64,000 nucleotides of DNA from Solirubrobacterales bacterium (GTDB taxonomy: Bacteria; Actinomycetota; Thermoleophilia; Solirubrobacterales; 70-9): NCBI GenBank assembly GCA_035502495.1, contig DATJUK010000141.1, positions 22,545 through 86,544 of the forward strand. The letters are read 5' to 3'. Position 1 is the first letter of the stretch; each line of letters begins with the position of its first letter. The translations under genes were made by a program, and so were the position numbers. Of the stretch, positions 16,359-56,604 are shown piece after piece. The notes under the pieces are model-generated. The model saw nothing but the letters and a program-made list of their open reading frames with translations, was not told where the DNA came from and did no database searches.

Positions 16359-16377
16359 CCTCAGGGCCTCACCCCAA

Positions 16378-17654: not shown

Positions 17655-18413
17655 ATGGGCACCGTCTACGCGATCGCGAACCAGAAGGGTGGCGTCGGCA
17701 AGACGACGAGCGCCGTCAACCTCGCCTCCTGCACCGCCTCCGAAGGCGAGCAGACGCTGCTGGTCGACCTCGATCCCCAGTGCAACGCGACCGTCGCGCT
17801 GGGCGGCGATCGGGACCTGCACCCCTCCTCCTACGACTGCCTCACCGGCGACACCGAGGTCGCCGCCGCCGCGCGCCCGGCCGGGCCCGACAACCTCTGG
17901 CTGGTCCCCGCCAACGTCGACCTGGCCGGGGCCGCGATCGAGCTCCCCCGGATCGAGAACTCCGAGACCCGTCTGCGCGACCGCCTCGGCCCGGTGCGGG
18001 AGCGCTTCGCCCGCACCTTCCTCGACTGCCCGCCCTCGCTCGGCCCGGTCTCGGTCAACGCCCTGGTCGCCGCCGACCGCGTCATCGTCCCGGTGCAGGC
18101 CGAGTACCTGGCGCTCGAGGGGCTGGTCCAGTTCCTGGAGACGCTGGGCCTGATCCGCCGCCGGCTGAACCCGCGCCTGGAGGTGTCGGGATTGCTCATA
18201 ACCATGCATGACGAGCGCACGCGGCTGGCCCAGGATGTCGAGGCCGAGCTGCGCGACCAGTTCCCCGGGATGGTCTTCGAGACGGTGATCCCGCGCAGCG
18301 TCAGGGTCGCCGAGTCGCCTAGCTATGGTCTCCCCGTGACCGAGCACGCCCCCACCTCGCGCGGTGCCCTCGCCTACAAGGCGCTGGCCAGGGAGCTCGT
18401 CACCCGTGGCTAG
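17655..18413 (+). CDS. parA: Chromosome partitioning ATPase ParA (Soj)
   Basis: Deviant Walker A: IANQKGGVGKTTSAVNLA. ..LLVDLDPQCNAT... Confidence 0.95.
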   Translation: MGTVYAIANQKGGVGKTTSAVNLASCTASEGEQTLLVDLDPQCNATVALGGDRDLHPSSYDCLTGDTEVAAAARPAGPDNLWLVPANVDLAGAAIELPRIENSETRLRDRLGPVRERFARTFLDCPPSLGPVSVNALVAADRVIVPVQAEYLALEGLVQFLETLGLIRRRLNPRLEVSGLLITMHDERTRLAQDVEAELRDQFPGMVFETVIPRSVRVAESPSYGLPVTEHAPTSRGALAYKALARELVTRG

Positions 18414-36663: not shown

Positions 36664-36746
36664 GGTCCGTCGGCCGGCGTCGCCCTGTCCCGTCGACGAC
36701 CGTGGGGAAAATTTCCCCGTCCGGTCGGACGGAAATTCCGCCCTTT

Positions 36747-38983: not shown

Positions 38984-39658
38984 GTGCCAGACGACGCGGA
39001 CAACATCAACGTGCCCTACCGGGCGCCCCAGCAGGTGCGGGACGAACCGCCTCCCCCCGGGTACTTCGAGGGAGAGTCGATGACCCGGCGCAAGGTCTTC
39101 ACGATCGCGGCCCAGGGTCTCGGCGGCCTGGCGGGCGCGGCGATCATCCTGCCCGCGGTCGGCTTCGCCGTGGCGCCGATCTTCCACCGCGGCAAGGAGC
39201 GCTGGGAGGCGATCGGCTCGACCTCGAACTTCGTCGAAGACACCTACCGTCAGGTCACCTTCACCGAAGTCCCCGGGATCGGCGACGCCGGCAAGACGCT
39301 CGCCTACGTGCGCAAAAGCTCGAAGGAACTGGGCGAAGAACCGGGCCAGTACGTCGCCGTCTCGAACCGCTGCGCCCACCTCGGCTGCCCGGTCCGCTTC
39401 GTCGAGGCGGCGGGCAACTTCATCTGCCCGTGCCACGGCGGCGTCTACGACTTCCAGGGCAAGCGGATCGGCGGCCCGCCGGTGCGCCCGCTCGACCGCT
39501 TCCAGACCCGGGTCAACAAAGGCCAGGTCGAAGTCGGCCCGCGCTACAGCGTCACCTCGCAGCTGAAGCCGGTCCGCGCCCGCGATCCCGGCGAGTTCAC
39601 CGGCGGGATCTGGGAATACCTGTACCCGCCGCGGCCCTCGACCTTCCCGGCCCCCTGA
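38984..39658 (+). CDS. qcrA: Rieske [2Fe-2S] subunit of a menaquinol:cytochrome c reductase
   Basis: CAHLGCPV..x..CPCHGGVYD Rieske boxes. Twin-arginine MTRRKVFTIAAQGLGGLAGAA. GTG 38984 or the internal ATG 39080 could be the start. Confidence 0.9.
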   Translation: MPDDADNINVPYRAPQQVRDEPPPPGYFEGESMTRRKVFTIAAQGLGGLAGAAIILPAVGFAVAPIFHRGKERWEAIGSTSNFVEDTYRQVTFTEVPGIGDAGKTLAYVRKSSKELGEEPGQYVAVSNRCAHLGCPVRFVEAAGNFICPCHGGVYDFQGKRIGGPPVRPLDRFQTRVNKGQVEVGPRYSVTSQLKPVRARDPGEFTGGIWEYLYPPRPSTFPAP

Positions 39659-40620
39659 TGCCCAAGCTTTCCGACCTACTCGTCCCCGCCCCGCTGCGGA
39701 AGACGCCGAAGCCCGGCGAAACCGGCGTGCCCAACCAGCCTGCCCCGCAGGACCTCAAGGACAACCCGCCGGAGCGCCCGAGCGACTACCAGCGGCTCGG
39801 GCAGCAGGCGCTGGAAGCGCCGATGGAGTCGGTCGCCTGGATCGACCAGCGGCTGGCGACGAGCGGCTTCCTCACCGGGATGCTGTTCCGCAAGGTGCCG
39901 AAAGGGACCAACTGGTTCTACACGCTCGGCTCCGCCGCGCTCTTCGCCTTCATCGTGCAGGCGGTGACCGGGGTCTTCCTGGCGATGTTCTACACGCCGT
40001 CGACGACCCAGGCCTACACCTCGATCGCCCACATCAACAACGACGTCTTCCTCGGCCAGCTGGTGCACGGCATGCACAAGTGGGGCGCCAGCGTGATGGT
40101 GATCCTGGTCTTCCTCCACATGGGCCGGACCTTCTTCTTCGGCGCCTACAAGTACCCGCGCGAGCTCAACTGGGTGATCGGCGTGGTGATCCTGATCCTG
40201 ACGATGACGATGGCCTTCACCGGCTACCTGCTGCCGTTCGACCAGCGCTCCTACTGGGCCTCGATCGTCGGCATCAACATCAACGGGACCGGGCCGATCG
40301 TCGGCCCCTACCTGAGTGACTTCCTGCGCGCCGGGCCGGAGCTCGGGGCGACCACCCTGTCGCGCTTCTACGCGATCCACATGCTGCTGGTGCCCGGTGC
40401 GCTGATCGCGCTGATCGGCGCCCACATGTACCTGGTGGTGAAGCTCGGCACCACCGCCCCGCCGTGGACCAAGGTCGGCAAACCGCGGGTCGCCGAGCCG
40501 ACCGCGAACCTCGACGCCGGGGTCTCCTCGGGCAACGGCTACCGACCGAACGGCAGCGGCCCGACGATCGCCGGCGTCCAGCTCGAGACCACCGACGGAG
40601 ACGGGACGGCACAGGCCTGA
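39658..40620 (+). CDS. qcrB: Cytochrome b (b6-like, four-helix N-terminal half)
   Basis: ..NWFYTLGSAALFAFIVQAVTGVFLAMFYTP.., ..HGMHKWGASVMVILVFLHMGRTFFFGAYKYPRELNW.., ..FYAIHMLLVP... The ATG overlaps the qcrA stop. Confidence 0.9.
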   Translation: MPKLSDLLVPAPLRKTPKPGETGVPNQPAPQDLKDNPPERPSDYQRLGQQALEAPMESVAWIDQRLATSGFLTGMLFRKVPKGTNWFYTLGSAALFAFIVQAVTGVFLAMFYTPSTTQAYTSIAHINNDVFLGQLVHGMHKWGASVMVILVFLHMGRTFFFGAYKYPRELNWVIGVVILILTMTMAFTGYLLPFDQRSYWASIVGININGTGPIVGPYLSDFLRAGPELGATTLSRFYAIHMLLVPGALIALIGAHMYLVVKLGTTAPPWTKVGKPRVAEPTANLDAGVSSGNGYRPNGSGPTIAGVQLETTDGDGTAQA

Positions 40621-41321
40621 TGAAGCCCGCGGATAAGCAGGCATACCTCGAGGAATACGAGGTCCTGAAGAAGAAAGGGAAGCCGTTCTTCCCCTACGCC
40701 GTGCTGAAGGACTCGGCGATGGCGCTGATCGTGGTCGGCGTGATCATCGCGATGTCGATCATCCTCGGCGCCGAGCAGGGCCCGAAGGCCGACCCGACGA
40801 CGACCACCTACGTGCCGCGTCCCGAGTGGTACTTCTTCTTCCTCTTCGAGGTCCTGCGCGTGATCAAACCGCCGGAGCTGGTGCCGGTGGCGACGATCGG
40901 GATCCCGACCATCTGCATGGTCCTGCTGCTGCTGCTGCCGTTCTACGACCGCGGCCCGGAGCGGCGCCCGGAGCGCCGGCCGCTGGCGACTACCGCCGGG
41001 ATCCTGACGATCCTCGCGATGGGCTACCTGACCTACGCCGGCGCCACCTCGGGGTCGCCTACCGAGATCGACATGAAGGTCGCGCCCCAATACAAGGCGG
41101 GATCGGAGATCGTCGCCTCTTCCGGTTGCCTGGCCTGCCACAAACTGGGCGAGAACGGCAACAACGGGCCGGGTCCCGAACTGACCCACATCGGCGCCCG
41201 CATCCCGCGCGCGGCGATCATCCGCTCGGTCGAAATCGGCCCGAGCATCATGCCTTCCTTCCGCGAACTGTCGAAAAAGAAGCTCGACGAGTTGGCGGAT
41301 TTCCTCTCTTCCTTGAACTGA
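40620..41321 (+). CDS. qcrC: Cytochrome b C-terminal half (subunit IV-like) fused to a mono-haem cytochrome c
   Basis: ..PRPEWYFFFLFEVLR.. (subunit IV motif), three TM helices, then CLACH haem c site. The ATG overlaps the qcrB stop. Confidence 0.85.
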   Translation: MKPADKQAYLEEYEVLKKKGKPFFPYAVLKDSAMALIVVGVIIAMSIILGAEQGPKADPTTTTYVPRPEWYFFFLFEVLRVIKPPELVPVATIGIPTICMVLLLLLPFYDRGPERRPERRPLATTAGILTILAMGYLTYAGATSGSPTEIDMKVAPQYKAGSEIVASSGCLACHKLGENGNNGPGPELTHIGARIPRAAIIRSVEIGPSIMPSFRELSKKKLDELADFLSSLN

Positions 41322-41380
41322 TCCGGCGCCGGGCGGCGTAGGCAGGCGCAGGGAGGACGGGTAACGTCTTCCCCAGAGCG

Positions 41381-42124
41381 ATGGACACGATCAACGACAA
41401 CCGCTCCTCGTCCGACTTCGCCGGGCAGGTCAACCGCATGTTCGACCGGGTCGCCGGGCGCTACGACGCGCTGAACGAGGTGATGACCGCCGGGCTGCAC
41501 CATCGCTGGCGCGAGCAGGCGGCGGACCGGGCGGCGCTGGGCCCGGGCGAGACGGCGCTCGACGTCTGCTGCGGCACCGGGGACTTCGCCTTCGAGCTCG
41601 CCCGTCGGGTGGCCCCCGGCGGCCGCGTGGTCGGCTGCGACTTCTCCGAGCCGATGCTCGACCTGGCCCGCGACAAGGCCGCGGCGCGAGGCGCCGAGGG
41701 CGTCCGCTTCGAGTGGGCCGACGCGCTCGAGCTGCCCTACGACGGCGAGCGCTTCGACGCGGTGACGGTCGGCTTCGGCGTCCGCAACCTGGCCGACCTC
41801 GACCGCAGCCTGCGCGAGATGGCCCGGGTGCTGAAGCCGGGCGGGCGCCTGGTGATCCTCGAGATCACGACGCCGACCCGGCCGCCGCTCTCCTTCTTCT
41901 TCTCGCTCTGGTTCGACCGCGTCGTGCCGCTGCTCGGGGTGCTGTCAGACGAGCCCGAGGCCTACAGCTACCTGCCCGAGTCGGTGCGCAGCTTCCCCTC
42001 GCCGCACGGCCTGGCGGAGAAGATGGACCACGCCGGCTTCGCCGCGATTCGCTACACGGTGCTGGCCGGCGGGATCATCGCGATCCACAGCGGCGTCAAA
42101 GGCCCGCTTCACGACAGCCACTGA
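41381..42124 (+). CDS. menG: Demethylmenaquinone methyltransferase (UbiE/MenG)
   Basis: ..VNRMFDRVAGRYDALNEVMTAGLHHRWR.., ..LDVCCGTGD.., ..FGVRNLADLD.., ..LKPGGRLVILE... Confidence 0.9.
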   Translation: MDTINDNRSSSDFAGQVNRMFDRVAGRYDALNEVMTAGLHHRWREQAADRAALGPGETALDVCCGTGDFAFELARRVAPGGRVVGCDFSEPMLDLARDKAAARGAEGVRFEWADALELPYDGERFDAVTVGFGVRNLADLDRSLREMARVLKPGGRLVILEITTPTRPPLSFFFSLWFDRVVPLLGVLSDEPEAYSYLPESVRSFPSPHGLAEKMDHAGFAAIRYTVLAGGIIAIHSGVKGPLHDSH

Positions 42125-43089
42125 TGGCCCCCGGATCGGCCGTGCCACCGCCGGTGACGGCGGTCCTCGACGCCTCCCAGCGGTGGCTGCCGGCCCGGCT
42201 GGGCGAGGTCGAGGAGATGCTGCGGGCGTCGATCGAGGGTTGGGGCGGCCCGCTCGGCGAAGACGCCGGAGCGACCCTGGCCGCCGGCGGCAAGCGGTTG
42301 CGCCCGATGCTGGTGCTGCTCTGCGCGGGCGAGTCGGGAGGGACGGAGGCGGTGCGGGCGGCGACCGCGATCGAGCTCGTCCACATGGCGACCCTGGTCC
42401 ACGACGACGTGCTCGACGAGGCGCCGCTGCGGCGCGGGCTGCCGACCGTGGCGGCGACCTCGGGCCGGGCCCGGGCGCTGGCGACCGGCGACCTGCTGCT
42501 CTCGCGCGCCTTCTCCCTGCTGAGCGAGGCGGGTGACCGGCACGCGGTGCTGCTGCTCGCCGACGCCGCCGTGGCGCTGGCCCGCGGCGAGCTCGCCCAG
42601 CGCCAGGACGCCTTCGACCTCGGCATCGGCGAGGAGCGCTACCTCCACCGCTGCCGGTTGAAGACCGCGACGCTCTTCGAATGCGCGGTGTCGCTGGGGC
42701 GCGACGACCCCGAGCTGCGCCGCTTCGGCGCCGAGGTCGGCCTCGCCTTCCAGCTGCTCGACGACGTCCTCGACGTGACCGGCCCGCCGGAGCGGACCGG
42801 CAAGGCGCGGGGCACCGACCTGCTCGACGGCACCGTGACGCTGCCGCTGATCGTCGCCGCCGAGCGCGACCCGAGCCTGCGCACGATCGACCTGCCGGGC
42901 CTCGACCCGGAGGCCGCCGAGGAGGTCTGCGAACGGATCGCGGCGACCGGCGCGCTGGGGACGGTCAGGGCGCGGGCGCTCGAGCTGGTCGCCGCCGGCA
43001 AGCGCCGGCTGGCCGGCGCCGGGTTCGACGCCGAAGGCCGCAGGCTGCTGGAGCTCGTGGCTGACGGCGTGGTTCAGCGCTACAGCTGA
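42124..43089 (+). CDS. Polyprenyl diphosphate synthase (long-chain, HepT/IspB-like)
   Basis: GKRLRPMLVLL, first DDxxD (LVHDDVLDE), second DDxxD (QLLDDVLD), GKARGTDLLDG. The ATG overlaps the menG stop. Confidence 0.88.
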   Translation: MAPGSAVPPPVTAVLDASQRWLPARLGEVEEMLRASIEGWGGPLGEDAGATLAAGGKRLRPMLVLLCAGESGGTEAVRAATAIELVHMATLVHDDVLDEAPLRRGLPTVAATSGRARALATGDLLLSRAFSLLSEAGDRHAVLLLADAAVALARGELAQRQDAFDLGIGEERYLHRCRLKTATLFECAVSLGRDDPELRRFGAEVGLAFQLLDDVLDVTGPPERTGKARGTDLLDGTVTLPLIVAAERDPSLRTIDLPGLDPEAAEEVCERIAATGALGTVRARALELVAAGKRRLAGAGFDAEGRRLLELVADGVVQRYS

Positions 43090-43124
43090 TCCAGAGAGCC
43101 CCAACTCTCGTTACCATTGTGTAG

Positions 43125-43406
43125 ATGCTCGGAAATATCGGCCCCCTCGAGATCATCATCGTCCTCATCATCGCGCTGATCGTGTTCGGTCCCAAACGGC
43201 TGCCGGAGCTCGGCAACAGCCTCGGCAAAGGGATCCGCGAGTTCAAAGACTCGGTCACCGGCGAGCACCGGGACGACCAGGCGGTCGAAGATCCCGAGGT
43301 GAAGACGATCGGCACCCCGCAGGCCACCACCACGCCGGTCGAGCCGCCGACGACCCACCGGGTCGAAGCGGACCAGGCCGAGGTCGTCCACGACAAAAAC
43401 GGCTGA
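43125..43406 (+). CDS. tatA: Twin-arginine translocase TatA/E family protein
   Basis: MLGNIGPLEIIIVLIIALIVFGPKRLPELGNSLGKGIREFK. Confidence 0.9.
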   Translation: MLGNIGPLEIIIVLIIALIVFGPKRLPELGNSLGKGIREFKDSVTGEHRDDQAVEDPEVKTIGTPQATTTPVEPPTTHRVEADQAEVVHDKNG

Positions 43407-44201: not shown

Positions 44202-45011
44202 ATGGCGCAGGGCAGCAACGAGCACAGGATGGTCTTCGACATCCGCGGCCGCAGGCGGTACGTGGTCAAAGTCGTCTACGCGATTCTCGCCGTCCTGATG
44301 GCCGCCAGCCTCTTCCTGGTCACCGGCGCGATCAACATCAACTCGATCCTGGGCACCGCCTCGAGCGGCGAAAGCGCCACCACGAGCCTCGAAAAGCAGG
44401 CCGAGCGGATCGAAGCCAAACTGGCGAAAGCGCCGGCGGACGAGGACATGCTGCTGAACCTGACCCGGACCCGGATCAACGTCGCCAACACGATGATCAC
44501 CAACGGCGCCAGCGGCCAGAGCGGCGCCGAAGAAGTCAAGCACCAGCTGGCGCTGGCGAGCGAAGACTGGTCGAGATACCTGAAGGCGGCGAAGGAACCG
44601 AGCCCGGGCCTGGCGATCCAGGCCTCGCCGGCGTTGTTCCAGCTGGCCGAACTCTCGACCACCGGCGAAGAGGCGCTGGAAAACGTCGCCGCCGCGACCG
44701 AAGCGCAGAAGATCGTCGCCGAAGCGCGTCCGAGCCTCAACAGCCTCAGCACGCTGGCGATCTATCAGCTGTTCGCGCAGGAATACAAGGCCGCCGAAAC
44801 CTCGCTCAAAGAAGCGACCAAATTCGCCGGCACCAAGTTCGAACGCGAATCGCTCGAAAACAAATTCGAAGAAGTCGAAAAAAACGCCAAAGAATTCGGC
44901 AAAGGTCTGAAAGCCGAAAAAGCGGCGGCGAAGAGCAGCAAGTCGTCGGGCAAAGAAGCGCTGGAAAACCCGCTTAACAGCCTCGGCGGCTCCTCGCTCG
45001 GCGGCGAATAG
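44202..45011 (+). CDS. Membrane-anchored, largely helical exported protein of unknown function
   Basis: Single TM VVKVVYAILAVLMAASLFLV, then an Ala/Glu/Lys-rich domain. Lies 10 nt after tatC. Clear coding periodicity. Confidence 0.7.
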   Translation: MAQGSNEHRMVFDIRGRRRYVVKVVYAILAVLMAASLFLVTGAININSILGTASSGESATTSLEKQAERIEAKLAKAPADEDMLLNLTRTRINVANTMITNGASGQSGAEEVKHQLALASEDWSRYLKAAKEPSPGLAIQASPALFQLAELSTTGEEALENVAAATEAQKIVAEARPSLNSLSTLAIYQLFAQEYKAAETSLKEATKFAGTKFERESLENKFEEVEKNAKEFGKGLKAEKAAAKSSKSSGKEALENPLNSLGGSSLGGE

Positions 45012-45072
45012 CCCTACCCAACATAAGTCCAGAGCCCTACTAAGAAGTTAGTATCGCTCTCGACCAGGGAAG

Positions 45073-45348
45073 TTGGGGGGCATGGAAGAAGGAGCACGCG
45101 ACGTGCGCCTCGTCGCCAGCCCAGGCGACGAGCCTCTCCCCGCCGAAGGTCCCCGCGACCCGGGGCTCACCGCCGCGGACCTCGACGTGGCCCGCGAGCT
45201 GGCCGAGTTCCACCGCCTGCTCGCCGCCGACCTGGCGCCGCGCTCGCAGCTGCGCGGCCTGGTCCTCCGCTGTGCCGGCCACTGGTCGCGACTCGGCGCG
45301 ATCCCCCGCAACGGCCTCGCCGAGGTCGAACGCCGCGACCGCGGCTGA
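45073..45348 (+). CDS. Hypothetical small protein (91 aa)
   Basis: High GC3 in this frame only. No recognisable motif. Confidence 0.4.
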   Translation: MGGMEEGARDVRLVASPGDEPLPAEGPRDPGLTAADLDVARELAEFHRLLAADLAPRSQLRGLVLRCAGHWSRLGAIPRNGLAEVERRDRG

Positions 45349-45503: not shown

Positions 45504-46286
45504 TCAGCGCTGGGCGCAGTACTTTTCGAGCCCGACGCCTTCGATCGTCAGGCCGTTGGAGAAGGTGAAGGCGCCGTGGCTGCGCAGGATGTGGTCGCTG
45601 CAGCGGGCGGCGACGTAGCTGCGCTGCTTGCCGCCGGCGGTGTAGCGGCGGCCGACCTTGATGCTGATCTTGGTGATCGCGCCGAGCCCGCCCGCCAGCG
45701 GCGGGATGTTCGCCACCGCCCGGTAGCGGAATTCCCCGCGGCGCTTTTCGATCGGCACGGTGAAGGCGTAGGTCTGGGTCGCCGGCACCGTGGTGCGGGC
45801 GTGGACGATCACGGTCGGCTTGCCTCCCAGGCGCGGGCCGTTGAAGAGGGTCAGCGGCGAGCCGGTCGGGACCAGGTTGCCGGAGACCGGGAGGGCGACC
45901 AGGGCTTCGACCTTGCCGGTGCCGACGATCGCGCCCTTGCAGATCCGCCGCGCTTCTTCGACGCTCACTTCGTCGATCGAGGCCGGCGCGCAGGTCGGCA
46001 GCCCGGCGACGTCGAGGCGGCCGTCGCGGTCGAAGTCGAGGACCACCTGCTGCAGGGCCGGCGGCTGCCCGCCGCCCGGTTTGGAGACGTCGAGAAAGCC
46101 GGAGAACTGGACCGGGGCGAAGCTCTTCACCGGCAGGTCACGGGGCTGGAAGGCGGCGTTGACTTCGATCCGCACTTCGCGCGTTTCGACCATCGCCGTG
46201 GCCCCGGCGACGGCGGCGCATAGCGCGCAGGCGAGGAGGAGGATCGCGAGGACGGGGAGGAGCCGCTTCAGCTTTCGAAGTGGCAT
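45504..46286 (-). CDS. P-family member P1: exported 4-Cys protein (possible lipobox LLAC)
   Basis: MPLRKLKRLLPVLAILLLACALCAAVAG.. signal. Motifs GLPTC..EEARRIC.GAIVGTG, LFNGP, HA, IPPLAGGLG, SYVAARC and the terminal C. The start overlaps the end of P2 by 19 nt. Confidence 0.75.
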   Translation of the reverse strand: MPLRKLKRLLPVLAILLLACALCAAVAGATAMVETREVRIEVNAAFQPRDLPVKSFAPVQFSGFLDVSKPGGGQPPALQQVVLDFDRDGRLDVAGLPTCAPASIDEVSVEEARRICKGAIVGTGKVEALVALPVSGNLVPTGSPLTLFNGPRLGGKPTVIVHARTTVPATQTYAFTVPIEKRRGEFRYRAVANIPPLAGGLGAITKISIKVGRRYTAGGKQRSYVAARCSDHILRSHGAFTFSNGLTIEGVGLEKYCAQR

Positions 46287-47068
46287 GGCGAGGTGAGCAG
46301 CGACTGCAGGAAGCTGCCGTCGGTGAAGATGAGTTCGCCGTGGACCTGGAGTCGGCCGCCGGAGCATTCGGCTTCGGCGTACCCGACCTTGCGGCCGTGG
46401 CGCTTATAGGTGCGACCGAACTGCGCTTCGGCGAGGATCGCCGAGCCGTCGCCGCCGGCGATCGGCGGCAGTTCCAGTTCGGCCCGGTAGCCGTAGCGGC
46501 CGTGGCTGATCTTTTCGACCGTGAACGGGACCAACAGCGCCTGCGGCGAGGGCACGGTCTCGTAGGCGTGGGCGATCAGGGCCGGTTTGCCGCCTTCCGG
46601 GGGCGCGTTGAAGATCGAGATCGGCGAGGTCATCACGAAGGGTGGCTTGCCGGGGAGGTCGACGCGGGCTTTGCCGACGCCGGTGCCGAGCAGCGCCGCG
46701 CCGCAGCGCTTGCGCGCTTCGTCGGGGGTGGTGCCTTCCAGCTTTGCCACCGTGCAGGTCGGCAGGCCCTTGAAGTTCAGCTTGCCGTGCTTGTCGAATT
46801 CGAAGATCAGCGTCTTCAGCGCCGGCGGCCGTTCCCCGTTCACGGTCTTGATCCGGACGATGCTGCCGAAGCTGGCCGGCAGGGTGCCGTGCTGGGGGAA
46901 CGCCCGCGGCTGGAATTCGGCGGTGGCGCTGACCTTCAGGTTGCCGATCTGGGTGGTGACCGCGTAGGCGACCGCACCGCCGACCAGGCTCACGACGAGC
47001 AGGAGGGTCGCGACCGTCCCGACCCGCCTGCCGCGTGAGCCGCGGCGCCTCAATTCTTCCCCGTGCAC
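46268..47068 (-). CDS. P-family member P2: exported 4-Cys protein
   Basis: TM ..VATLLLVVSLVGGAVAYA. GLPTC..DEARKRCGAALLGTG, IFNAP, AHAY, LPPIAGGDG, GYAEAEC and the terminal C. GTG 47068 was chosen because the junction mirrors the P2/P1 junction. TTG 47053 is an alternative. Confidence 0.72.
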   Translation of the reverse strand: MHGEELRRRGSRGRRVGTVATLLLVVSLVGGAVAYAVTTQIGNLKVSATAEFQPRAFPQHGTLPASFGSIVRIKTVNGERPPALKTLIFEFDKHGKLNFKGLPTCTVAKLEGTTPDEARKRCGAALLGTGVGKARVDLPGKPPFVMTSPISIFNAPPEGGKPALIAHAYETVPSPQALLVPFTVEKISHGRYGYRAELELPPIAGGDGSAILAEAQFGRTYKRHGRKVGYAEAECSGGRLQVHGELIFTDGSFLQSLLTSPCHFES

Positions 47069-47817
47069 TGTTTGAGGATCAGCCCGCTCAGTTTGGTCGA
47101 GTCGGTGAATTCGGTTTCGATTTTCGCCTGCAGCTTGCCGCTGGGGCAGCTGGCGTTGACGTAGCTCAGCCGCTGACCCTTGAAGGTCCATTTTTTGCCG
47201 ATCGTCAGGCTGCCTTCGAGCGGGATCCCGGCGCCGCCGGCGATCTTCGGGATCGTCGCTTCGGTGCGGAAGCCGAAGGGCCCGTTGCGCACCCTCTGGA
47301 TTTCGACCGGGACGATGTAGGTGGTCGGCGCGGGCACGCTCAGGTAGGCGTGGGCGAGCACCGTCGGGTTGCCGTTGTGGGGCGGCGCGTTGAAGATCGT
47401 GATCGGCGAGCTCGCCCTGAACGGCCGCTGTTCGGGGAAGGCGATGACCGCGGTGCCGTGACCCTCGCCGACGATCGAGCCGCCGCAGACTTTGCGCGCC
47501 TGCTGCGAGGTGGTCGCCGCCAGCTTCGCTTTGGTGCAGTAGGGCAGGCCCTTGGTGATGACTTCGCCGTGTTTGTCGTACCAGACGGTGAGCTTGTGCA
47601 GGATCGGCGGCAGCGAGCCGTCGGTGGTCCCGATGCTGCCTTCACCGTGGATCGTGATCGGCGCGAATTCGTGCTTCGGCAGCGTCGTCGGCGAGAAGCC
47701 GCCTTCGCCCACCACTTCGATCGGCCCCGCGCGCAGCACGATCGCCAAGGCCGCACCGCTCATCGTCAGCAGTGCGACGGCGGTCAAGATGACCATCCTT
47801 AACACGTTCTTCCGCAT
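47050..47817 (-). CDS. P-family member P3: exported 4-Cys protein
   Basis: MRKNVLRMVILTAVALLTMSGAALA signal. GLPYC..QQARKVCGGSIVGEG, IFNAP, AHAY, IPKIAGGAG, SYVNASC and the terminal C. Confidence 0.78.
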   Translation of the reverse strand: MRKNVLRMVILTAVALLTMSGAALAIVLRAGPIEVVGEGGFSPTTLPKHEFAPITIHGEGSIGTTDGSLPPILHKLTVWYDKHGEVITKGLPYCTKAKLAATTSQQARKVCGGSIVGEGHGTAVIAFPEQRPFRASSPITIFNAPPHNGNPTVLAHAYLSVPAPTTYIVPVEIQRVRNGPFGFRTEATIPKIAGGAGIPLEGSLTIGKKWTFKGQRLSYVNASCPSGKLQAKIETEFTDSTKLSGLILKQCTGKN

Positions 47818-47859: not shown

Positions 47860-50800
47860 GTGGGAAGGAGTAGGAGCAGGGGAGGGGACCGGCCTCGGGA
47901 TTCGGCGACCGCGCGACGGCAGCCTTGGCTGCTGCGGCATCCGCGCGAGATCCTGCTGATCGCCGGGATCGTCCTGGCGGCGCTGGCCGTGATCGGCACC
48001 GGGGTCGACAAGCGCCTCGACCCGACCACGCTCGCCGTGCCCGGCAGCTCGGCGACGGAAGCGAACCAGCTGCTGGAAGAACACTTCGGGCCCTCGGCGC
48101 CGTTCGCGATCCTGCTGCAGGGGCCCGCCGCGGCGCTGGACGAACAGGGCCCGGGCCTGGTCGAAGCGTTGCGCGACGAACCGGGGGTCACGACGATCTC
48201 ACCCTGGGACAAGGGCACGGTCGAAGGCCTGCGACCGCATCCCGGAGACGCGCTGATCCTCGCCGACTTCCACGTCGGCACCAAAACGGCGGTCAACCAG
48301 ACCGTCCCCCACGTCGAACAACTTCTGCAAGAACACGTGAGCGCGCCGGTGACCGCGACGCAGACCGGGTACGCGACGCTGTCGCGGGCGCTGCAGGAGG
48401 AAACCATCGACTCCGCCGAGCACGACGAGCTGATCGCGCTGCCGATCCTGCTGGTCGTCCTCCTGCTCGTCTTCCGCTCGCCGATCGCCGCGGTGATCCC
48501 GCTCGGCTTCGGCGCGATCACCGTGCTCTCCTCGCGCGGGATCCTCTACTTCCTCACCTCCTGGTTCTCGATCGACGCCTTCGCGCTGACCGTCTGCACG
48601 ATGATCGGGCTGGCGCTGGGGGTGGACTACGCCCTCTTGATGGTCTCGCGCTTCCGCGAGGAGCTGGCCGACGGGGCGGAGCCGATCGAAGCGGCGCGGA
48701 GGACGCGCAAGCACGCCGGGCGCACGGTCGCCTTCGCCGGCTCGACCCTCCTGGTCTCGATGCTGGTCTCGCTGCTGATCCTGCCCGGGTCGCTGCTGAT
48801 CTCGCTGGCGGGGACGGTGGCGATGGTCGTCGTCCTCTCGGTGACCGTGGCGACGCTGGTCGGCCCGGCGGTCCTGACCCTGGCGGGAACCAACGTGAAC
48901 CGCTGGCGGATCGGCAAGGCGGCCAGCGCCGACCGCTCCGCGGTGATGGCGTTCGTCAACGCGGCGCTGCGCCGACCGCTGGTCGCGGCGCTGGTGATCG
49001 GCGGCGTGCTGCTGGCGCTGGCGGCGCCGGCGATCGGGCTGAAGCTGGGGCCGCCGAGCCCCGAACAGCTCTCCAAGGACTCGCCCACGCGCCAGAACCA
49101 GGAACTGATCGACGACACGATCGGGCCGGGCTGGGACGCGCCGTTCCAGGTGGTCGCCGTCAACCCCACCGGGCCGGTCACCGACCCGGGCAGCATGGCG
49201 GCGCTGGAACGGTTCCAGCGCCGGATCGCCTCGTTCGGCGGCGTCAAAGTCGTGATCGGCCCGACCGCGGCGACCAAGCGGGTCGAGCCGCTGCAGGAAC
49301 TCGGCAACGCGGCGCTCTCGTCGAAGGGGAACATCGGCCCGGTCAAGGAACTCGGGCACCTGGGCAAGGAACTGAACGTGGCGGCCGGCGGGGTGGGGGC
49401 GCTGCGGGCCGGGATCGGCGAAGCAAGCGACGGCGCCGGGCTGCTGGCGCAGGGCTCCGAACACGCGACCGAAGGCGCGCAGCTGCTCGCCCACGGGTTG
49501 GAGCGGGCGGCGGGCGGCAGCCGGCGGGCGATCGACGCCCTCGAACGGTTCGCGAAAGGCTCGGAAAAGCTGGTCGAATTCCAGCTGGAAGCCGCGATCG
49601 GCACGCAACAGATCCGCGCCGCGACGGAGACCTTCGTCGGCCCGACCCTCCGCTACAACGGCCTCCAGACCCAGCGCAACCTGGTCCGCCGGCTGCTCGC
49701 CGAGGCGAACGAAACGCTGCCCAGGTTGCTGAAGCCGGCCCAGGAGACGGTGGAAAAGCTGCAGGCGGCGGAAGCGAGGCTGAAGGAAGCGACGGCCGGC
49801 GATCCGGCTGCCGCGGCGGCGCTGGAAGAGGTGCAGGCGGCGCTGACCGCGATGACCGGCACCGACCCGGCGACCGGCGCGCACTACGAAGAAGGCTACG
49901 CGGGGCTGGTCGGCGAAATCGAAGCGCTCGAGCGGCGGCTCGGCCACGACGGCGCCGAAGCCCACAAAGTCGCCACCTTCATCCACTCGACGATCACCGA
50001 AATGCACCGGGTCTCAAACGAAATGGGCCGCCTGATCTCGGGCCTCTACAAAATGCACAAAGCGACCAACACGCTCGCCCACGGGGCCCGCAAGCTGGCC
50101 AACGCGGCGGGCACGCTGGGCAAAGGGATCGAACGGCTGAGCGGCGGCGCCGACTCGCTGGCCAGCGGGCTCGCCCGCCTGGTCGGCGGCGCCGAATCGC
50201 TGGAACAGAATCTCGCCGAGGGCGTGACGAAGTCCGAACCGCTGGAAACCGGGCTGGAAGAAGCCAGCGTCCAGGTGCTGGAAGGCAAGTCGAAGATCCA
50301 CCGCCAGGCCGCGAAGGTGCAGGAGCAGTCGCCAGGCCTCTTCAACTCGGGGTACTTCGTGCTCTCGGCCCTCGACGGTGCGCCCCCCGGGACGCGCGAA
50401 AAGATCGGTCAGACGATCAACGTGGAAAAAGGTGGGCAGGCGGCCGCGGTCCTGGTGATCTCGAAGTACGAATTCAACTCGCCCGGCTCGATCGCGCTGA
50501 ACCGGCGGCTCGCGGGGGCGGCGACGGAACTGGGCCAGGACGCGAGCCTCGAGACCGGGGTCGCGGGCGGCGCCGCGCAGCTGAACGACTACAGCCACAT
50601 CACCCGCGAACGGATCCCCTGGATCATCGCGATCATCACCCTGGTCACCTTCCTGGTGCTGGTCGTGGTCCTGCGAGCGCTGCCGCTGGCGGCGATCGCG
50701 GTGGGGCTGAACCTGCTCACCGTCGGCGTCGCCTTCGGCATCCTCACGATCCTCTTCCACGTGCCGAAGGACTGGCCGTTGGGCGGCCACGACTACGTCG

Positions 50801-51174
50801 ACGCGGTCGGCTCCTGCATGATCTTCGCCCTCGTCTTCGGGCTCTCGATCGACTACGCGGTCTTCCTCCTGACGCGGATGCGGGAGCGCTACGAGGCGGG
50901 CGACGACAACGCCACCGCGGTGCGCTTCGCGCTGGACAAGACGGCGCGGGTGATCACCGGCGCGGCGGCGATCATGCTGGCCGTCTTCATCGCCTTCGCC
51001 GGGGCGCCGATCGCGACCGTGAGCCAACTCGGGGTCGGCCTCACCGTCGCGGTGGTGCTCGACGCCACCGTGGTGCGGATCGTCCTGCTGCCCGCCCTGA
51101 TGCTCCTGCTCGGCGACCGCGTCTGGTGGCTGCCGCGCCCGCTCCAGCGGGTGCTGCCGCGGTTCGAGGTATGA
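47860..51174 (+). CDS. MMPL-family (RND superfamily) transporter with a very large second ectodomain carrying helical Ala/Gly/Leu-rich repeats
   Basis: Two 6-TM bundles (..GLALGVDYALLMVSRFREE.. and ..GLSIDYAVFLLTRMRE..). First ectodomain is about residues 50-190 and the second about 395-918 by my count. The second includes YhgE/Pip-like repeats (..GAQLLAHGLERAAGG.., ..LSGGADSLASGLARLVGGAESLEQNL..). Confidence 0.92.
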   Translation: MGRSRSRGGDRPRDSATARRQPWLLRHPREILLIAGIVLAALAVIGTGVDKRLDPTTLAVPGSSATEANQLLEEHFGPSAPFAILLQGPAAALDEQGPGLVEALRDEPGVTTISPWDKGTVEGLRPHPGDALILADFHVGTKTAVNQTVPHVEQLLQEHVSAPVTATQTGYATLSRALQEETIDSAEHDELIALPILLVVLLLVFRSPIAAVIPLGFGAITVLSSRGILYFLTSWFSIDAFALTVCTMIGLALGVDYALLMVSRFREELADGAEPIEAARRTRKHAGRTVAFAGSTLLVSMLVSLLILPGSLLISLAGTVAMVVVLSVTVATLVGPAVLTLAGTNVNRWRIGKAASADRSAVMAFVNAALRRPLVAALVIGGVLLALAAPAIGLKLGPPSPEQLSKDSPTRQNQELIDDTIGPGWDAPFQVVAVNPTGPVTDPGSMAALERFQRRIASFGGVKVVIGPTAATKRVEPLQELGNAALSSKGNIGPVKELGHLGKELNVAAGGVGALRAGIGEASDGAGLLAQGSEHATEGAQLLAHGLERAAGGSRRAIDALERFAKGSEKLVEFQLEAAIGTQQIRAATETFVGPTLRYNGLQTQRNLVRRLLAEANETLPRLLKPAQETVEKLQAAEARLKEATAGDPAAAAALEEVQAALTAMTGTDPATGAHYEEGYAGLVGEIEALERRLGHDGAEAHKVATFIHSTITEMHRVSNEMGRLISGLYKMHKATNTLAHGARKLANAAGTLGKGIERLSGGADSLASGLARLVGGAESLEQNLAEGVTKSEPLETGLEEASVQVLEGKSKIHRQAAKVQEQSPGLFNSGYFVLSALDGAPPGTREKIGQTINVEKGGQAAAVLVISKYEFNSPGSIALNRRLAGAATELGQDASLETGVAGGAAQLNDYSHITRERIPWIIAIITLVTFLVLVVVLRALPLAAIAVGLNLLTVGVAFGILTILFHVPKDWPLGGHDYVDAVGSCMIFALVFGLSIDYAVFLLTRMRERYEAGDDNATAVRFALDKTARVITGAAAIMLAVFIAFAGAPIATVSQLGVGLTVAVVLDATVVRIVLLPALMLLLGDRVWWLPRPLQRVLPRFEV

Positions 51175-52217: not shown

Positions 52218-53618
52218 GTGGCTGCGAAACCCCAAGGCGAGGAGAAACGCTCGGCTCCGAGCCGAGGGACCACTCCTGCCCGGCTCGCGGCGATCGGGGC
52301 CCTGGCGGCGGTGGTGATCGTGCTCGCGATCGTGCTCTTCAGCGGCGGCGGCGGCCACAAGTACACCTTCATGTTCCAGAACGCCGGCCAGCTGGTGAAC
52401 GACAACCAGGTGCTGATCGGCGGCTCGCCGGTGGGGACCGTCTCCAGCATCGAACTGAGCCCCGAGAACCTGGCCGAAGTCAACGTCGAAGTCGAACAGG
52501 AACTGCACGAAGGGACGACGGCGGTGATCCGCGCGACCTCGCTCTCCGGCGTCGCCAACCACTACCTCTCGATCAGCCCTGGCCCGAACTCGAATCCGGC
52601 GCTCGAAGAAGGGGCCACGCTGGGCCTCTCCTCGACCACGACGCCCGTCGATATCGACCAGTTCTTCAACAGCTTCCCGCCGAAGGTGCGCGAAGGCCTG
52701 CAGAACTTCATCAAAGGCAACGGGCAGATCTATGCCGGGCGCGGCAAGGAAGCCAACGAAAGCTACAAGTACTTCGGCACGGCGCTGAACAGGAGCGCTC
52801 ATTTCGCCTCCGAACTGAACGCCGACGAACAGCTGCTCTCGCACTTCCTGGTCAGCTCGGCGAAGCTGACCTCGGCGATCTCCGGACGCGGCGCCCAGCT
52901 CTCCAGCGCGATCTCCAACGCGACCACCGCGTTCCAGTCGATCAACACCCAGAACGTCGCCCTCGACCAGGCCCTGCAGGAGCTGCCCCCGGTCCTGCGC
53001 CAGTCGAACACCACCTTCGTCAACCTGCGCGCCGCGCTCGACGACGTCGAACCGCTGATCAACACGGCCAAGCCGGCGACGAAGAACCTGGCCCCGTTCC
53101 TCGCCGAACTGCGCCCGGTGATCAGCAAATTCATCCCGTTCACGCGCAACTTCGGCCTGGCGCTGAGCAGGCCCGGCCCGCACAACGACACGCAAGAGCT
53201 CCTGGCGATCATGCCGACCGTCCAGACGCGCGCCTCCCGCACCTTCCCCCACGCCGAAGGGGCGATCGCCGCCTTCCAGCCGCAGTTGAGCTTCCTCCGC
53301 TCCTACACCCCGGATTTCTTCAACGGGATCTCGAAGCTGGGGCAGATCAGCGGCTACTACGACGGCAACGGCAACTACGTCCGCGCGGCGACGACGTTGC
53401 AGAACATGTTCAAGAACGAAAACGGGACGCTGAACGTGATCCCGAAGTCGGAACAGCTCGCCCCCCTCGGCGGGCCTTCGGCGACGCCGACGCGTTGCCC
53501 GGGCGGAGCGGCGCAGGCGCCCGCCGACAACTCGGCTCCCTACGTGAACCCGCCGCACGGCGGCAGCGGCGTCGGCGCATCGGACTGCAACCCCTCGCAG
53601 GCGGTGGGCGGTCCGTGA
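52218..53618 (+). CDS. MCE/MlaD-family protein 1 of 6
   Basis: N-terminal TM, MCE domain (YTFMFQNAGQLVNDNQVLIGGSPVGTVSSIEL...LSGVANHYLSISPG), long helical region, Cys-pair tail. Confidence 0.9.
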   Translation: MAAKPQGEEKRSAPSRGTTPARLAAIGALAAVVIVLAIVLFSGGGGHKYTFMFQNAGQLVNDNQVLIGGSPVGTVSSIELSPENLAEVNVEVEQELHEGTTAVIRATSLSGVANHYLSISPGPNSNPALEEGATLGLSSTTTPVDIDQFFNSFPPKVREGLQNFIKGNGQIYAGRGKEANESYKYFGTALNRSAHFASELNADEQLLSHFLVSSAKLTSAISGRGAQLSSAISNATTAFQSINTQNVALDQALQELPPVLRQSNTTFVNLRAALDDVEPLINTAKPATKNLAPFLAELRPVISKFIPFTRNFGLALSRPGPHNDTQELLAIMPTVQTRASRTFPHAEGAIAAFQPQLSFLRSYTPDFFNGISKLGQISGYYDGNGNYVRAATTLQNMFKNENGTLNVIPKSEQLAPLGGPSATPTRCPGGAAQAPADNSAPYVNPPHGGSGVGASDCNPSQAVGGP

Positions 53619-55165
53619 AAAAGCTGATCGCCGGAGCAGTGGTGGTGGCCGCGATCGTCGTCGCGGTGATCCTGATCGCGGGCGGCGGCTCGGGCGAAGG
53701 CTACGTCGTGCGCGCCGTCTTCGACCAAGGCTCGTTCATGGTCAGCGGTGAGCAGGTGCGCGTCGCCGGCGCCAACGTGGGGGAAATCAAGTCGGTGGGG
53801 GTCTCCTTGCCGGGCGAACCGACGGCGATCGAAGACGGCAAGTTCAAGGACGTCCCGGGCAAGGCGATCATCGAGCTCGAAATCACCGATCCCGGCTTCC
53901 AGGACTTCCGCCAGGACGCCAGCTGCGAAATCCGGCCGCAGTCGCTGATCGGCGAGAAGTACGTCAACTGCACGCCGACCGTGCCGCGGGCGCCGGGCCA
54001 GCAGGAGGCCCCGCCGCTGAAACAGATCCCGGCAGGCGAACCTGGCGCGGGCCAGTATCTGCTGCCGCTCGGCAGCAACACGACCAGCGTCGATCCCGAC
54101 CTGATCAACGACATCCAGTCGCTCCCCTACGCGCAGCGCTTCCGGCTGATCTTCAACGAACTCGGGGCCGGGCTGGCGGGCCGCGGGGAAGACCTGGAAG
54201 CGGCGATCAAGCGCGCCAACCCGACCTTGCGCAACGTCGACCTCCTGTTCAAGCAACTGACCGAAGAGAAGCATCAGCTCGCCCAACTGGCCTCCGACTC
54301 GAAGGAAATCCTCGAACCGCTGACGCGCGAAAAGCAACACGTGGTCGGCTTCCTCGCCCATTCCGGCGAAGCGGCCGAAGCGAGCTCGGCGCACGGGCCG
54401 GAACTCGAAGAGGCGCTGCAGAAGTTCCCCCGGTTCCTGACCGAGTTCCGCGCGACGATGGCCAATCTCAAGGAGTTCTCCGACGCGGGCACGCCGCTGC
54501 TCGAAGACCTCGGGGTGGCGGCGCCGTCGCTGACCGACGCGACCCGGGCCCTGACGCCGTTCTCGAAAGCGACGACGACGGCGCTCACCAGCCTCGGCAG
54601 CGTGGGCGAAGAAGCGGGCCCGGTCTTCGCGGAAGCGACGCCGGTGGTGCGGAAGGCGAGCAAGCTGGCGATCAGCGGCGAAGTGTCGACCGCCGAACTC
54701 GCCCATCTGTTCGTCAGCATCAAGGAAACCGGTGGGTGGAACGGTCTCACCGAACTGATCTACAACACGGCGCTTTCGCTGAACGGCTTCGACAAATACG
54801 GCCACTACGGCCGCACGCTGCTCAATCTGACCGCCTGCATCGAATACATCCCGCATCCGGGCGGCTACAGCGGCTGCGTGGCGCGGTTCCACGGATACCA
54901 GGCGTCGGAAAGCGAAACGGAAACCAGCGCCCGGGCGCTGGTGCGTCTGATCAATCGCCTCGACACCGAACGAGCGGAACTGGCCGAAGCCGAAAACGGG
55001 GGTACCGCCGCCGAGAAGCCCGCCGCCACCCTGGGCGGGGCGCGCTCGGCCGAAGGAACCGCGCCCGCGCGACGCGGCGGCGGCGAAGGCAACCCGGGCC
55101 TCGGTGAAGCGACGACCACCGAAGGGGCGACCGAACCCCTTCTCGACTACCTCCTGGGCCAATGA
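53615..55165 (+). CDS. MCE/MlaD-family protein 2 of 6
   Basis: The GTG overlaps the previous stop (GTGA). TM, MCE domain (YVVRAVFDQGSFMVSGEQVRVAGANVGEIKSV...LIGEKYVNCTP), helical region, acidic/Gly tail. Confidence 0.9.
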   Translation: MKKLIAGAVVVAAIVVAVILIAGGGSGEGYVVRAVFDQGSFMVSGEQVRVAGANVGEIKSVGVSLPGEPTAIEDGKFKDVPGKAIIELEITDPGFQDFRQDASCEIRPQSLIGEKYVNCTPTVPRAPGQQEAPPLKQIPAGEPGAGQYLLPLGSNTTSVDPDLINDIQSLPYAQRFRLIFNELGAGLAGRGEDLEAAIKRANPTLRNVDLLFKQLTEEKHQLAQLASDSKEILEPLTREKQHVVGFLAHSGEAAEASSAHGPELEEALQKFPRFLTEFRATMANLKEFSDAGTPLLEDLGVAAPSLTDATRALTPFSKATTTALTSLGSVGEEAGPVFAEATPVVRKASKLAISGEVSTAELAHLFVSIKETGGWNGLTELIYNTALSLNGFDKYGHYGRTLLNLTACIEYIPHPGGYSGCVARFHGYQASESETETSARALVRLINRLDTERAELAEAENGGTAAEKPAATLGGARSAEGTAPARRGGGEGNPGLGEATTTEGATEPLLDYLLGQ

Positions 55166-56604
55166 GGAACCGGCACGGAGGATTCGCGGTGAGCCCGGTG
55201 CTGGTCGGCGCCGTGACGGTGCTGGTGATCATCGTCGCCGTCTTCCTCGCCTACAACGCCAACAACGGCCTGCCGTTCGTCTCGACCTACGACCTGAAGG
55301 CGCGGCTGCCCAACGCCGACGCGCTGGTGAAGGCGAACGAGGTGCGGATCGGCGGCGCCCGGGTCGGGGTGGTCAAGTCGGTGGTCCCGGTGCAGAGGAA
55401 GAACGGGGCGGTCGAAGCGGAACTCACCCTGAGCCTCGACAAGAGCGCCGAACCGATCCCCAACGACTCGACCATCGAGGTGCGGCCGAAATCGCCGCTC
55501 GGCCTCAAGTACCTGCAGATCACCCCGGGAAGCTCGACCGTCGGCTACAAGGCCGGCGAAACGATCCCGGTCCGCTACGCGACGCCGGAACCGGGGGACA
55601 TCGACAAATTCTTCGACATGTTCAACACGCCGACCCGCAAGGCGATCCAGCGCAACCTGGCGGGCTTCGGCAACGCCCTGGCCGGGCGCGGGCCGCAGCT
55701 GAACGAAGCGATCGGGGCATTGCGCGGCTTTCTCGAAGAAGGCGAACCGGCCTCGGCGACCCTGGCCTCGCCGACGACCAACTTCGCCGGCTTCTTCCGC
55801 GCGGTGGCGGCGCTCTCGGCGACGGTGGCCCCGGTGGCGGGAGAGCAGGCGAGCATGTTCGTCGCCCTCGACCGGACCTTCGCCGCCTTCGCCCACGTCT
55901 CCAGCCCCTACATCGAAGAAACGATCGAAAAGGGCCCGCCGACGCTGGACACGGTCAACGCCGGGCTGCCGAAGATCAACCCGTTCCTGCACGACACCGC
56001 GCGCTTCTTCACCGCCCTGCGCCCTGGCGCCAAGGCGCTGGAGGAAACCTCGCCGATCATCGCCGAATCCCTCCACGCCGGGATCCCGGCGCTGAACGCC
56101 TCGCCGGTCCTCAACAACCAGCTGCTGCCGACCGCGCAGGCGCTGGTCGCCTTCCAGGAAGCCGAAGGGACGATGACCGGCCTGCAGCTGCTCACCGACC
56201 TGAACGAAAACCTCGAAGCGCCGCTGCGGTTCATCACCCCGGCGCAGACCACCTGCAACTACTTCTCCTTGACCTTCACCCAGGTGGCGAGCGCGTCTGG
56301 AGGCGGCAACAAGTACGGCAAGTGGCTGAACTTCATCTCCTTCCCGCCCCCGGAAGGAACCAACAGCGAGTCCGGGCAGGCTTCGGCGCCCGCGAACGGT
56401 CCCAAAGGCAATCATCTCCACTACAACCCGCTGCCCAACACCGCGGCGCCCGGCCAGGCGCGCGGCTGCGAAGCCGGTAACGCGAAATACGCGGAAGGCC
56501 AGACCGTGATCGGCGAAGCACCGCAGGTGTGGTCGGAACAGACCGAAGGCATCTCGCAGGCCAGCGGATCGGAATCCGGATCCGGGGGAGGCGGCAGCGA
56601 ATGA
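55162..56604 (+). CDS. MCE/MlaD-family protein 3 of 6
   Basis: ATGA overlap. TM, MCE domain (YDLKARLPNADALVKANEVRIGGARVGVVKSV...PLGLKYLQITPG). Confidence 0.9.
   Translation: MRNRHGGFAVSPVLVGAVTVLVIIVAVFLAYNANNGLPFVSTYDLKARLPNADALVKANEVRIGGARVGVVKSVVPVQRKNGAVEAELTLSLDKSAEPIPNDSTIEVRPKSPLGLKYLQITPGSSTVGYKAGETIPVRYATPEPGDIDKFFDMFNTPTRKAIQRNLAGFGNALAGRGPQLNEAIGALRGFLEEGEPASATLASPTTNFAGFFRAVAALSATVAPVAGEQASMFVALDRTFAAFAHVSSPYIEETIEKGPPTLDTVNAGLPKINPFLHDTARFFTALRPGAKALEETSPIIAESLHAGIPALNASPVLNNQLLPTAQALVAFQEAEGTMTGLQLLTDLNENLEAPLRFITPAQTTCNYFSLTFTQVASASGGGNKYGKWLNFISFPPPEGTNSESGQASAPANGPKGNHLHYNPLPNTAAPGQARGCEAGNAKYAEGQTVIGEAPQVWSEQTEGISQASGSESGSGGGGSE

Follow-up and report, generated by a model that had tools for sequence, protein, structure and literature searches.

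Several small extracytoplasmic proteins of mycobacteria, among them Mam/Mas, LucA, MmpS and LpqN, are needed for or associated with mce and mmpL transporters, and in actinobacterial mce operons the position directly upstream of the mce genes is normally occupied by yrbEAB. Solirubrobacterales are abundant, mostly uncultured soil Actinomycetota, and to our knowledge essentially nothing has been established about their envelope biology. Here we describe a 64,000-nt stretch of DNA from a Solirubrobacterales bacterium (assembly GCA_035502495.1, contig DATJUK010000141.1, positions 22,545–86,544; hereafter the window), in which a gene for an MMPL-family transporter lies directly upstream of six MlaD/Mce genes and is accompanied by five genes, P0–P4, for secreted proteins of a single family, for which we use the shorthand FAM.

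Like the mycobacterial accessory genes, FAM genes are found after six mce genes (locus L080 of our survey), within an MMPL operon, or divergent from MMPL. The proteins differ in being secreted beta-domains, with signal peptides that look cleavable and no membrane anchor, and most FAM genes are not beside a transporter. P0–P4 gave no Pfam match at E ≤ 1 to the MmpS-, LpqN- or MlaC-type families PF05423, PF10738 and PF05494. A FAM gene directly downstream of mceA–F on the same strand, as for Mam/Mas-like proteins, was seen at L080; P4 lies upstream and on the opposite strand both in the window and at L001, the orthologous locus of another Solirubrobacterales genome, and at L034, L050 and L053 FAM is convergent with the mce cluster. 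Our literature search returned nothing on Solirubrobacterales with MmpL or Mce, nor on MCE–MmpL operons or pairing.

Five paralogous genes in the window

All five genes are on the minus strand and their translated open reading frames (ORFs) are 255–280 aa long. P3 (47050–47817; 255 aa; E 2.7e-96 against the family hidden Markov model, HMM) is the first gene of an operon that continues with P2 (46268–47053, with an alternative GTG start at 47068; ~261 aa from a TTG start; E 3.6e-85) and P1 (45504–46286; 260 aa from an ATG start; E 3.3e-83). The TTG start of P2 overlaps the stop codon of P3 inside the sequence TTGA, and the ATG of P1 is located 19 nt inside the 3′ end of P2; because of these two overlaps we regard P3-P2-P1 as a translationally coupled operon. 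P0 (38091–38933, alternative start 38912; 273–280 aa; E 3.2e-83) is the most divergent of the five and lies 6.6 kb left of P1, and P4 (51224–52027; 267 aa; E 1.8e-77), which carries a Lys-rich C-terminal tail, is placed between the 3′ end of the MMPL gene and the start of the mce cluster, on the strand opposite to both.

A preliminary description of this DNA had proposed an exported family of five members with the same ordered motifs, and this held in full. Pairwise BLASTP aligned the paralogues at 28–37% identity with E values of 1e-25 to 1e-59, and the family HMM, run against all six translated frames of the window, found exactly five members (E 1e-77 to 1e-96), with no sixth at the right edge or elsewhere. 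The shared motifs are, in order, FxPxxLP, PPxL...D..G, GLPxC, AxxxCxxAxVGxG, FNG, HAY, PxIAGGxG, SYxxAxC and a terminal Cys. P1 is identical to NCBI HTT94771.1 of a Solirubrobacterales bacterium, annotated 'hypothetical protein', and P4 and P0 correspond, by match or cluster, to HTT94775.1 and HTT94761, which carry the same annotation.

The window has a GC content of ~70% and plentiful long shadow ORFs, and DNA of this kind could in principle yield spurious ORFs or compositional motifs. For P0–P4 this explanation is refuted and its chance is negligible. A codon-usage log-odds caller trained on genes with Pfam hits chooses the P0–P4 frames, homologues number in the thousands, public annotations already call these proteins, and the AlphaFold2 (AF2) model described below is confident. 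Moreover, the orthologues of P0–P4 in L001 are 72–78% identical (P0 72%, P3 76%, P4 78%), with ratios of non-synonymous to synonymous substitution (dN/dS) of 0.42–0.64, which are below 1 and close to those of MMPL (0.35) and Mce (0.33–0.39) in the same comparison. In L001 the start of the P2 orthologue overlaps the P3 stop by 4 nt, and the P4 orthologue keeps the same position. Each paralogue thus has its own orthologue at 72–78% identity, compared with ~30% among the paralogues; P0–P4 are anciently diverged, individually conserved subfamilies, as the old duplication suggested earlier would lead one to expect.

Size and distribution of the family

A word-indexed search returned at least 1,923 homologues, none of which had a Pfam domain or an informative name, and when 1.84 billion representatives were searched exhaustively with a family profile, 2,578 clusters at 50% identity were recovered, of which 646 had E ≤ 1e-30. 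Scanning one genome of each GTDB species for the family motif confirmed 308 loci, with several genomes supplying 2–4 each. The best 80 of these 308 loci come from metagenome-assembled genomes (MAGs) of Solirubrobacterales, Thermoleophilia or Conexibacteraceae, or from MAGs labelled only 'Actinomycetes' or 'bacterium', and every labelled hit that we saw belongs to the Thermoleophilia lineage. No homologue was found on the plasmids of PLSDB. The locus scan used a motif-homogeneous subset of the alignment, which biases the 80 loci towards one orthogroup, and the contigs of divergent members are mostly short, so that contexts there are thinly sampled. One of these distant lineages, only ~32% identical to the window copies, has a further tandem triplet (L086:1271–3632; 248, 260 and 267 aa, the first two genes overlapping by 4 nt); tandem triplets therefore recur.

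The preliminary description could not assign the family to any domain, and neither could we. For P0–P4 there were no Pfam families at E ≤ 1 and no NCBIfam families; in sequence searches of the PDB, a 5-sequence profile gave no match at E ≤ 10, and for a 110-sequence profile the best match was inhibin at E 0.24, which is spurious. At the level of the sequence family, FAM is an undescribed domain with no curated or solved-structure relative. Because it is a large secreted family with a confident fold and no such relative, we suggest that it deserves a family definition in the style of a Pfam DUF.

Export signals

The family is secreted, as its N-terminal signal or anchor had suggested. Among the 110 aligned members, a hydrophobic N-terminal region is present in all, a K/R within the first 12 residues in 101 and an AxA site in 95; the charged n-region, h-region and AxA-type site of Sec signals are thus features of the family. 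P3 consists of the signal peptide MRKNVLRMVILTAVALLTMSGAALA followed by an all-beta domain, and in its AF2 model the signal helix (residues 5–15) has low predicted local distance difference test (pLDDT) values and the fold begins at residue 26.

Lipoprotein, twin-arginine (Tat) and sortase signals were considered as means of retention and rejected, all being absent or rare. The lipobox [LVI][ASTVI][GAS]C occurs in 4 of the 110 aligned members, and P0–P4 have no Pfam match to the LprG/LppX-type family PF07161. A loose twin-arginine pattern (RRx[FLIVMA][LIVMA]) occurs in only 14 of the 110, and none of the five window members has a convincing Tat motif, though tatA/tatC are nearby. Within the last 60 residues of 150 representatives no LPXTG-like motif was found, and in 110 of these 150 the chain ends 3–5 residues past the last Cys.

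Predicted fold and conserved residues

The AF2 model of P3, built from the 110-sequence alignment, has a pLDDT of 93.7 and a predicted template modelling score (pTM) of 0.87. It contains ~18 beta-strands and one short helical hairpin (residues 96–110), so the beta-rich domain expected earlier is reproduced by the model, and the family fold is predicted to be an all-beta, sandwich-like domain of ~230 aa. The four Cys residues singled out as invariant are indeed 99–100% conserved across the alignment. In P3, C94 and C111 flank the helical hairpin, and C224 and C251 are in the last adjacent strands; this spacing fits the two disulfides suggested in the preliminary description, and the secondary-structure map points to two probable local pairs, C94–C111 and C224–C251. 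Comparison of the N- and C-terminal halves by hhalign found no internal duplication within the domain. A natural two-domain member, P0123 (~30% identical), was modelled as the same fold twice with a low-confidence linker (pLDDT 89, pTM 0.56); at this pTM a fixed packing of the two domains of the tandem fusion is not supported.

Foldseek searches of the PDB and BFVD with the P3 model gave nothing at E < 1e-3. The top match, which also has the highest TM-score for the single-domain model, was TTHA1873 of Thermus thermophilus (PDB 7wwo), a hypothetical beta-sandwich protein (TM-score 0.34 by query and 0.50 by target, probability 1.0), but it covers part of the domain (158 versus ~230 aa) at 9% identity and an rmsd of 7.6 Å. 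We found no literature on TTHA1873, and because it is itself uncharacterised it says nothing on FAM function. Next came the N-domain of Sgo0707 from Streptococcus gordonii (PDB 4igb; query TM-score 0.31, probability 0.94). With the P0123 model, Sgo0707 was matched at E 1.6e-5 and probability 1.0 but at a TM-score of 0.21, and further matches were transglutaminase and integrin beta-domains, the MSCRAMMs SdrD, ClfA, Bbp and UafA (E 4e-4 to 1e-2, TM-scores of only 0.17–0.24) and RbmA. Sgo0707 and the MSCRAMMs resemble FAM in being extracellular all-beta sandwich modules that can occur in tandem. They differ in that the similarity is low (TM-scores of only 0.21–0.31, 7–9% identity), in that FAM lacks a Pfam adhesin signal and LPXTG, and in lineage, Firmicutes as against Thermoleophilia; moreover, we know of no Sgo0707 or MSCRAMM domain with the two conserved disulfides and helical hairpin of FAM. 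The class 'extracellular beta-sandwich, adhesin-like' thus fits the modelled fold no more than generically, and a specific relative was not found.

Lower in the P3 list were barrels such as nitrobindin, Rv2717c, LolA, MD-1 and AvmM. These matches bear on the possibility that FAM proteins are soluble extracytoplasmic lipid carriers, analogous to MlaC, LprG/LppX or LolA, in which a hydrophobic cavity would shuttle lipid between a transporter and the wall or environment. Such a functional analogy is compatible with the MMPL/Mce context, and neighbouring genes at other loci, namely two FadD-like ligases flanking FAM, a P450, an FMO and TetR regulators, suggest a theme of hydrophobic substrates. 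But the barrel matches have TM-scores of 0.16–0.32, mostly at low probability, those to LolA-like and lipocalin-like barrels (0.16–0.27) being at noise level; the P0123 model matches adhesin-like sandwiches instead; Pfam gives no MlaC, LppX_LprAFG or LolA signal; a lipobox is missing from 106 of the 110 aligned members; and fusion to propellers and tandem repetition, described below, would be unusual for carriers. Hence we consider lipid carriers quite unlikely. The preliminary description had suggested looking for lipid-binding cavities in models, a suggestion that the MMPL–Mce context makes more pertinent; the fold matches lean to adhesin-like sandwiches.

Conserved columns of the alignment are mostly structural (Cys, Gly, Pro, Phe, Ala). 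Apart from the Cys residues, G119 is invariant, and conservation reaches at least 93% at each of P43, L46, P53, G90, A107, G117, F142, N143, P162 and P190. The recurrent polar positions are limited to N143 (94%), H156 (87%), K/R208 (97%) and S218 (84%). Together with the Gly-rich loop PxIAGGxG, these polar positions could be cited in favour of a secreted protein whose active site has escaped recognition, be it an enzyme such as a wall-modifying hydrolase or an inhibitor of enzymes such as proteases. However, outside the four Cys there is no invariant polar residue, and no enzyme family was matched by sequence or by fold; because the conservation is overwhelmingly structural, it argues against an enzyme, which we regard as very improbable. 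The alignment contains no conserved catalytic constellation, and we infer that the family is non-catalytic.

Linkage to MMPL and Mce genes

The MMPL-family (RND-type) transporter gene (47860–51174, plus strand) encodes 1104 aa and matches PF03176 at E 2.7e-66; we placed its start at 47860 because the first transmembrane (TM) helix is encoded upstream of 47989. Between TM6 and TM7 it has an insert of ~530 aa that is Ala/Glu/Leu-rich and coiled-coil-like. The six consecutive MlaD/Mce genes (mceA–F-like; 52218–61128, plus strand) match PF02470 in all six cases and PF11887 in three. The P3-P2-P1 operon is divergent from MMPL across ~42 bp, and the order of the P0–P4, MMPL and Mce genes in L001 is that of the window. 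A gene for an MlaE/YrbE-like multi-TM permease was not found anywhere in the 64-kb window by Pfam or by a TM scan, and this arrangement of MMPL and six Mce genes deserves attention in its own right.

We propose that P0–P4 act in the cell envelope as extracytoplasmic modules for binding or scaffolding, with no enzymatic activity. Their genes are arranged around the MMPL–6×Mce lipid-transport locus, and the proteins would most likely be extracytoplasmic partners of that apparatus, which could bind the substrate, or link or order the parts that span the wall. We hold this reading tentatively, with somewhat less than even confidence. It is the partnership with MMPL–Mce that seems most likely to us because of the shared 42-bp control region and the conserved synteny, because the paralogues are kept 1:1, as would be expected for distinct subunits, and because operonic coupling is seen in other genomes. 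On these observations P0–P4 may be physically or functionally coupled to MMPL/Mce. The repeated operonic linkage offers a handle on wall lipid transport in a non-mycolate, deep-branching actinobacterium, and if the link to the transporter is true, FAM proteins would be transporter accessory subunits of a new class.

Genes were called and clustered at 80 further loci, most of which hold one orthogroup; its setting there is housekeeping synteny, rpsF-ssb-rpsR-rplI-dnaB-purA-TetR-FAM. At L008, L018 and L021 the genes c13, (c18), MMPL, c29 and FAM follow each other on one strand, where c13, c18 and c29 are neighbour clusters and FAM starts 1 nt after the c29 stop; L029 has the same c13/MMPL/c29/FAM order, but with a truncated FAM ORF and a gap of ~400 nt. 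At L034, L050 and L053 MMPL and six mce genes are co-directional, with a convergent TetR-FAM pair, and at L080 six mce genes are followed co-directionally by two FAM genes with a 95-nt gap. These linkages with MMPL/Mce involve three different FAM subfamilies.

Several observations weigh against the proposed partnership. MMPL or Mce was present within 10 kb at only 11 of 82 loci, and 45 of the 82 had neither MMPL/Mce nor c13, c19 or c29; on these counts the family as a whole cannot depend on MMPL/Mce. The MMPL-linked loci are mostly one origin-proximal region in related genomes, and thus the arrangements are not fully independent. Also, the best Foldseek matches are Gram-positive adhesin or Ig-like sandwiches and not lipid-binding folds (TM-score ≤ 0.34), and the unfixed packing in the P0123 model gives no support for defined oligomers. 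At 31 of the 82 loci c13, c19 or c29 was nearby, and the commonest co-directional neighbour was TetR, at 22 of 101 FAM genes.

Secreted partner families and domain fusions

Three secreted families recur in FAM operons: c13 (~900 aa, 12–20 Cys), c19 (~1000 aa, with an NHL/TolB-like propeller) and c29 (~157 aa, helical). They were found at L006, L008, L013, L018, L021, L024, L082, L087 and L090, with examples at L072:15105–17771, L051:16382–19285 and L018:13192–13665, and their partnerships with FAM recur in divergent lineages. The gaps between FAM and its tight partners c13 and c19 are 8–23 nt (L013, L024), and at L090, where FAM identity is ~35%, c29 overlaps FAM by 8 nt. The C-terminus of c19 has a conserved Cys-loop and polybasic tail, CPKGKx(R/K)VKxxGKxRCVK..., which is possibly a retention signal, and c13 has a shorter polybasic tail past its last Cys.

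Neither Pfam nor NCBIfam has a family for c13, c15, c21, c29 or c11, and c13 and c29 have no sequence match in the PDB; for c19 the NHL-propeller matches in NCBIfam are sub-threshold only. In HMM and hhalign comparisons, c15, c19 and c29 were rejected as relatives of FAM. In c13, three regularly spaced stretches weakly match the GLPxC-helix-C segment of FAM (hhalign P 6e-4), and per-sequence p values against the FAM HMM were down to 2e-5, the best of 44 reversed or shuffled controls being 0.03; this similarity is suggestive of FAM-like repeats in c13. Other neighbours of FAM are a LuxR-type regulator, BamB-like propellers, a collagen-like protein and a protein with a sub-threshold HtaA-like match, in which no single domain passed.

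FAM domains occur singly, as tandem doubles, as P0-like forms with insertions of 80–140 aa after the FNG strand, and possibly in a protein with 3–4 FAM repeats. In fusions of 450–920 aa, NHL/SGL beta-propeller repeats and an InlB B-repeat are followed by a C-terminal FAM, and at L082 an NHL-FAM fusion is part of a c19-c13-c19-c13-fusion-c19 operon with 4-nt overlaps. P0003 was considered as a Rosetta-stone fusion of P2 and P1 and rejected, as it probably arose from an error of gene calling or assembly where the two genes overlap by 19 nt.

These arrangements bring in a second reading of the family, in which FAM proteins are autonomous surface, adhesion or matrix proteins built from a lineage-specific Ig-like block, and the proximity to MMPL/Mce only reflects a conserved 'envelope island' near the origin. 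We take this to be the main rival reading and hold it nearly as likely as the partnership, again at less than even odds. The Foldseek matches to Sgo0707, the MSCRAMMs, RbmA and the integrin and transglutaminase beta-domains, the beads-on-a-string appearance of the double-domain protein, the fusions behind NHL propellers and InlB B-repeats, the operons with large secreted c13 and c19 and the nearby collagen-like protein all speak for it, as do the huge paralogue expansion of the family and the 45 of 82 loci that have neither a transporter nor c13, c19 or c29. But TM-scores of just 0.2–0.34 denote generic similarity, and attachment would be unexplained, as signals for retention, be it LPXTG, a lipobox, SLH or another, are lacking. 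Moreover, the tight MMPL operon, with its 1-nt gap via c29, and the placement after mce are found in several genomes, and the paralogues are conserved 1:1 across genomes and are not rapidly diversifying. If the transporter link is not real, FAM would add a new module to those from which actinobacterial surface proteins are built.

Returning to partnership with MMPL–Mce, a more far-reaching version would be a previously unrecognised, Thermoleophilia-specific envelope apparatus of FAM, c13, c19 and c29, in which an MMPL/RND pump replaces the YrbE/MlaE permease. A pump driven by proton motive force, with its long coiled-coil ectodomain, would then serve a six-subunit Mce needle as its partner in the membrane, and P1–P4 would be extracytoplasmic substrate-handling or wall-spanning subunits with a fold unrepresented in the PDB. 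We think this version rather unlikely. As a kind of thing, FAM is a secreted beta-sandwich envelope or accessory protein, and a new mechanism is not demonstrated.

Neighbouring genes

The chromosomal origin region, at 4917–19284, has gyrA, gyrB, recF, dnaN and dnaA on the minus strand followed by yidC, parA and parB, which puts the FAM/MMPL/Mce cluster close to the origin; in related genomes the neighbouring block is the one from rpsF to FAM given above. Past the 3′ end of P0, at 35182–38072 and in the same orientation, are genes for a 441-aa secreted protein and a 493-aa beta-propeller with 14 Cys, YVTN/lactonase-like repeats and weak similarity to c19, followed by a sulfatase (33533–35185). 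The 441-aa protein has no Pfam or NCBIfam family, and the NCBIfam matches of the propeller are sub-threshold or marginal only. This arrangement of P0, 441-aa protein and propeller echoes the propeller-FAM fusions seen elsewhere.

Between P0 and P1, a bc-type complex (Rieske, cytochrome b and a cytochrome b-c fusion) is encoded at 38984–43406, and the interval also has a UbiE/MenG methyltransferase, a polyprenyl synthase and tatA/tatC, in identical order in L001; these appear to be respiratory and secretory housekeeping genes, and nothing obvious ties them to the family. Between P1 and a gene for a 269-aa protein, a segment of ~300 bp (45037–45332), which holds an 81-aa ORF (45103–45348, plus strand), is inverted relative to L001 by blastn, with both flanks collinear. 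It was rejected as an invertible switch, as convincing flanking inverted repeats were not found. The 269-aa protein itself, encoded at 44202–45011 directly after tatA/tatC, has sub-threshold or marginal NCBIfam matches only and is 70% identical in L001; a single TM helix at its N-terminus precedes an ectodomain that is rich in Ala, Glu and Lys and probably helical.

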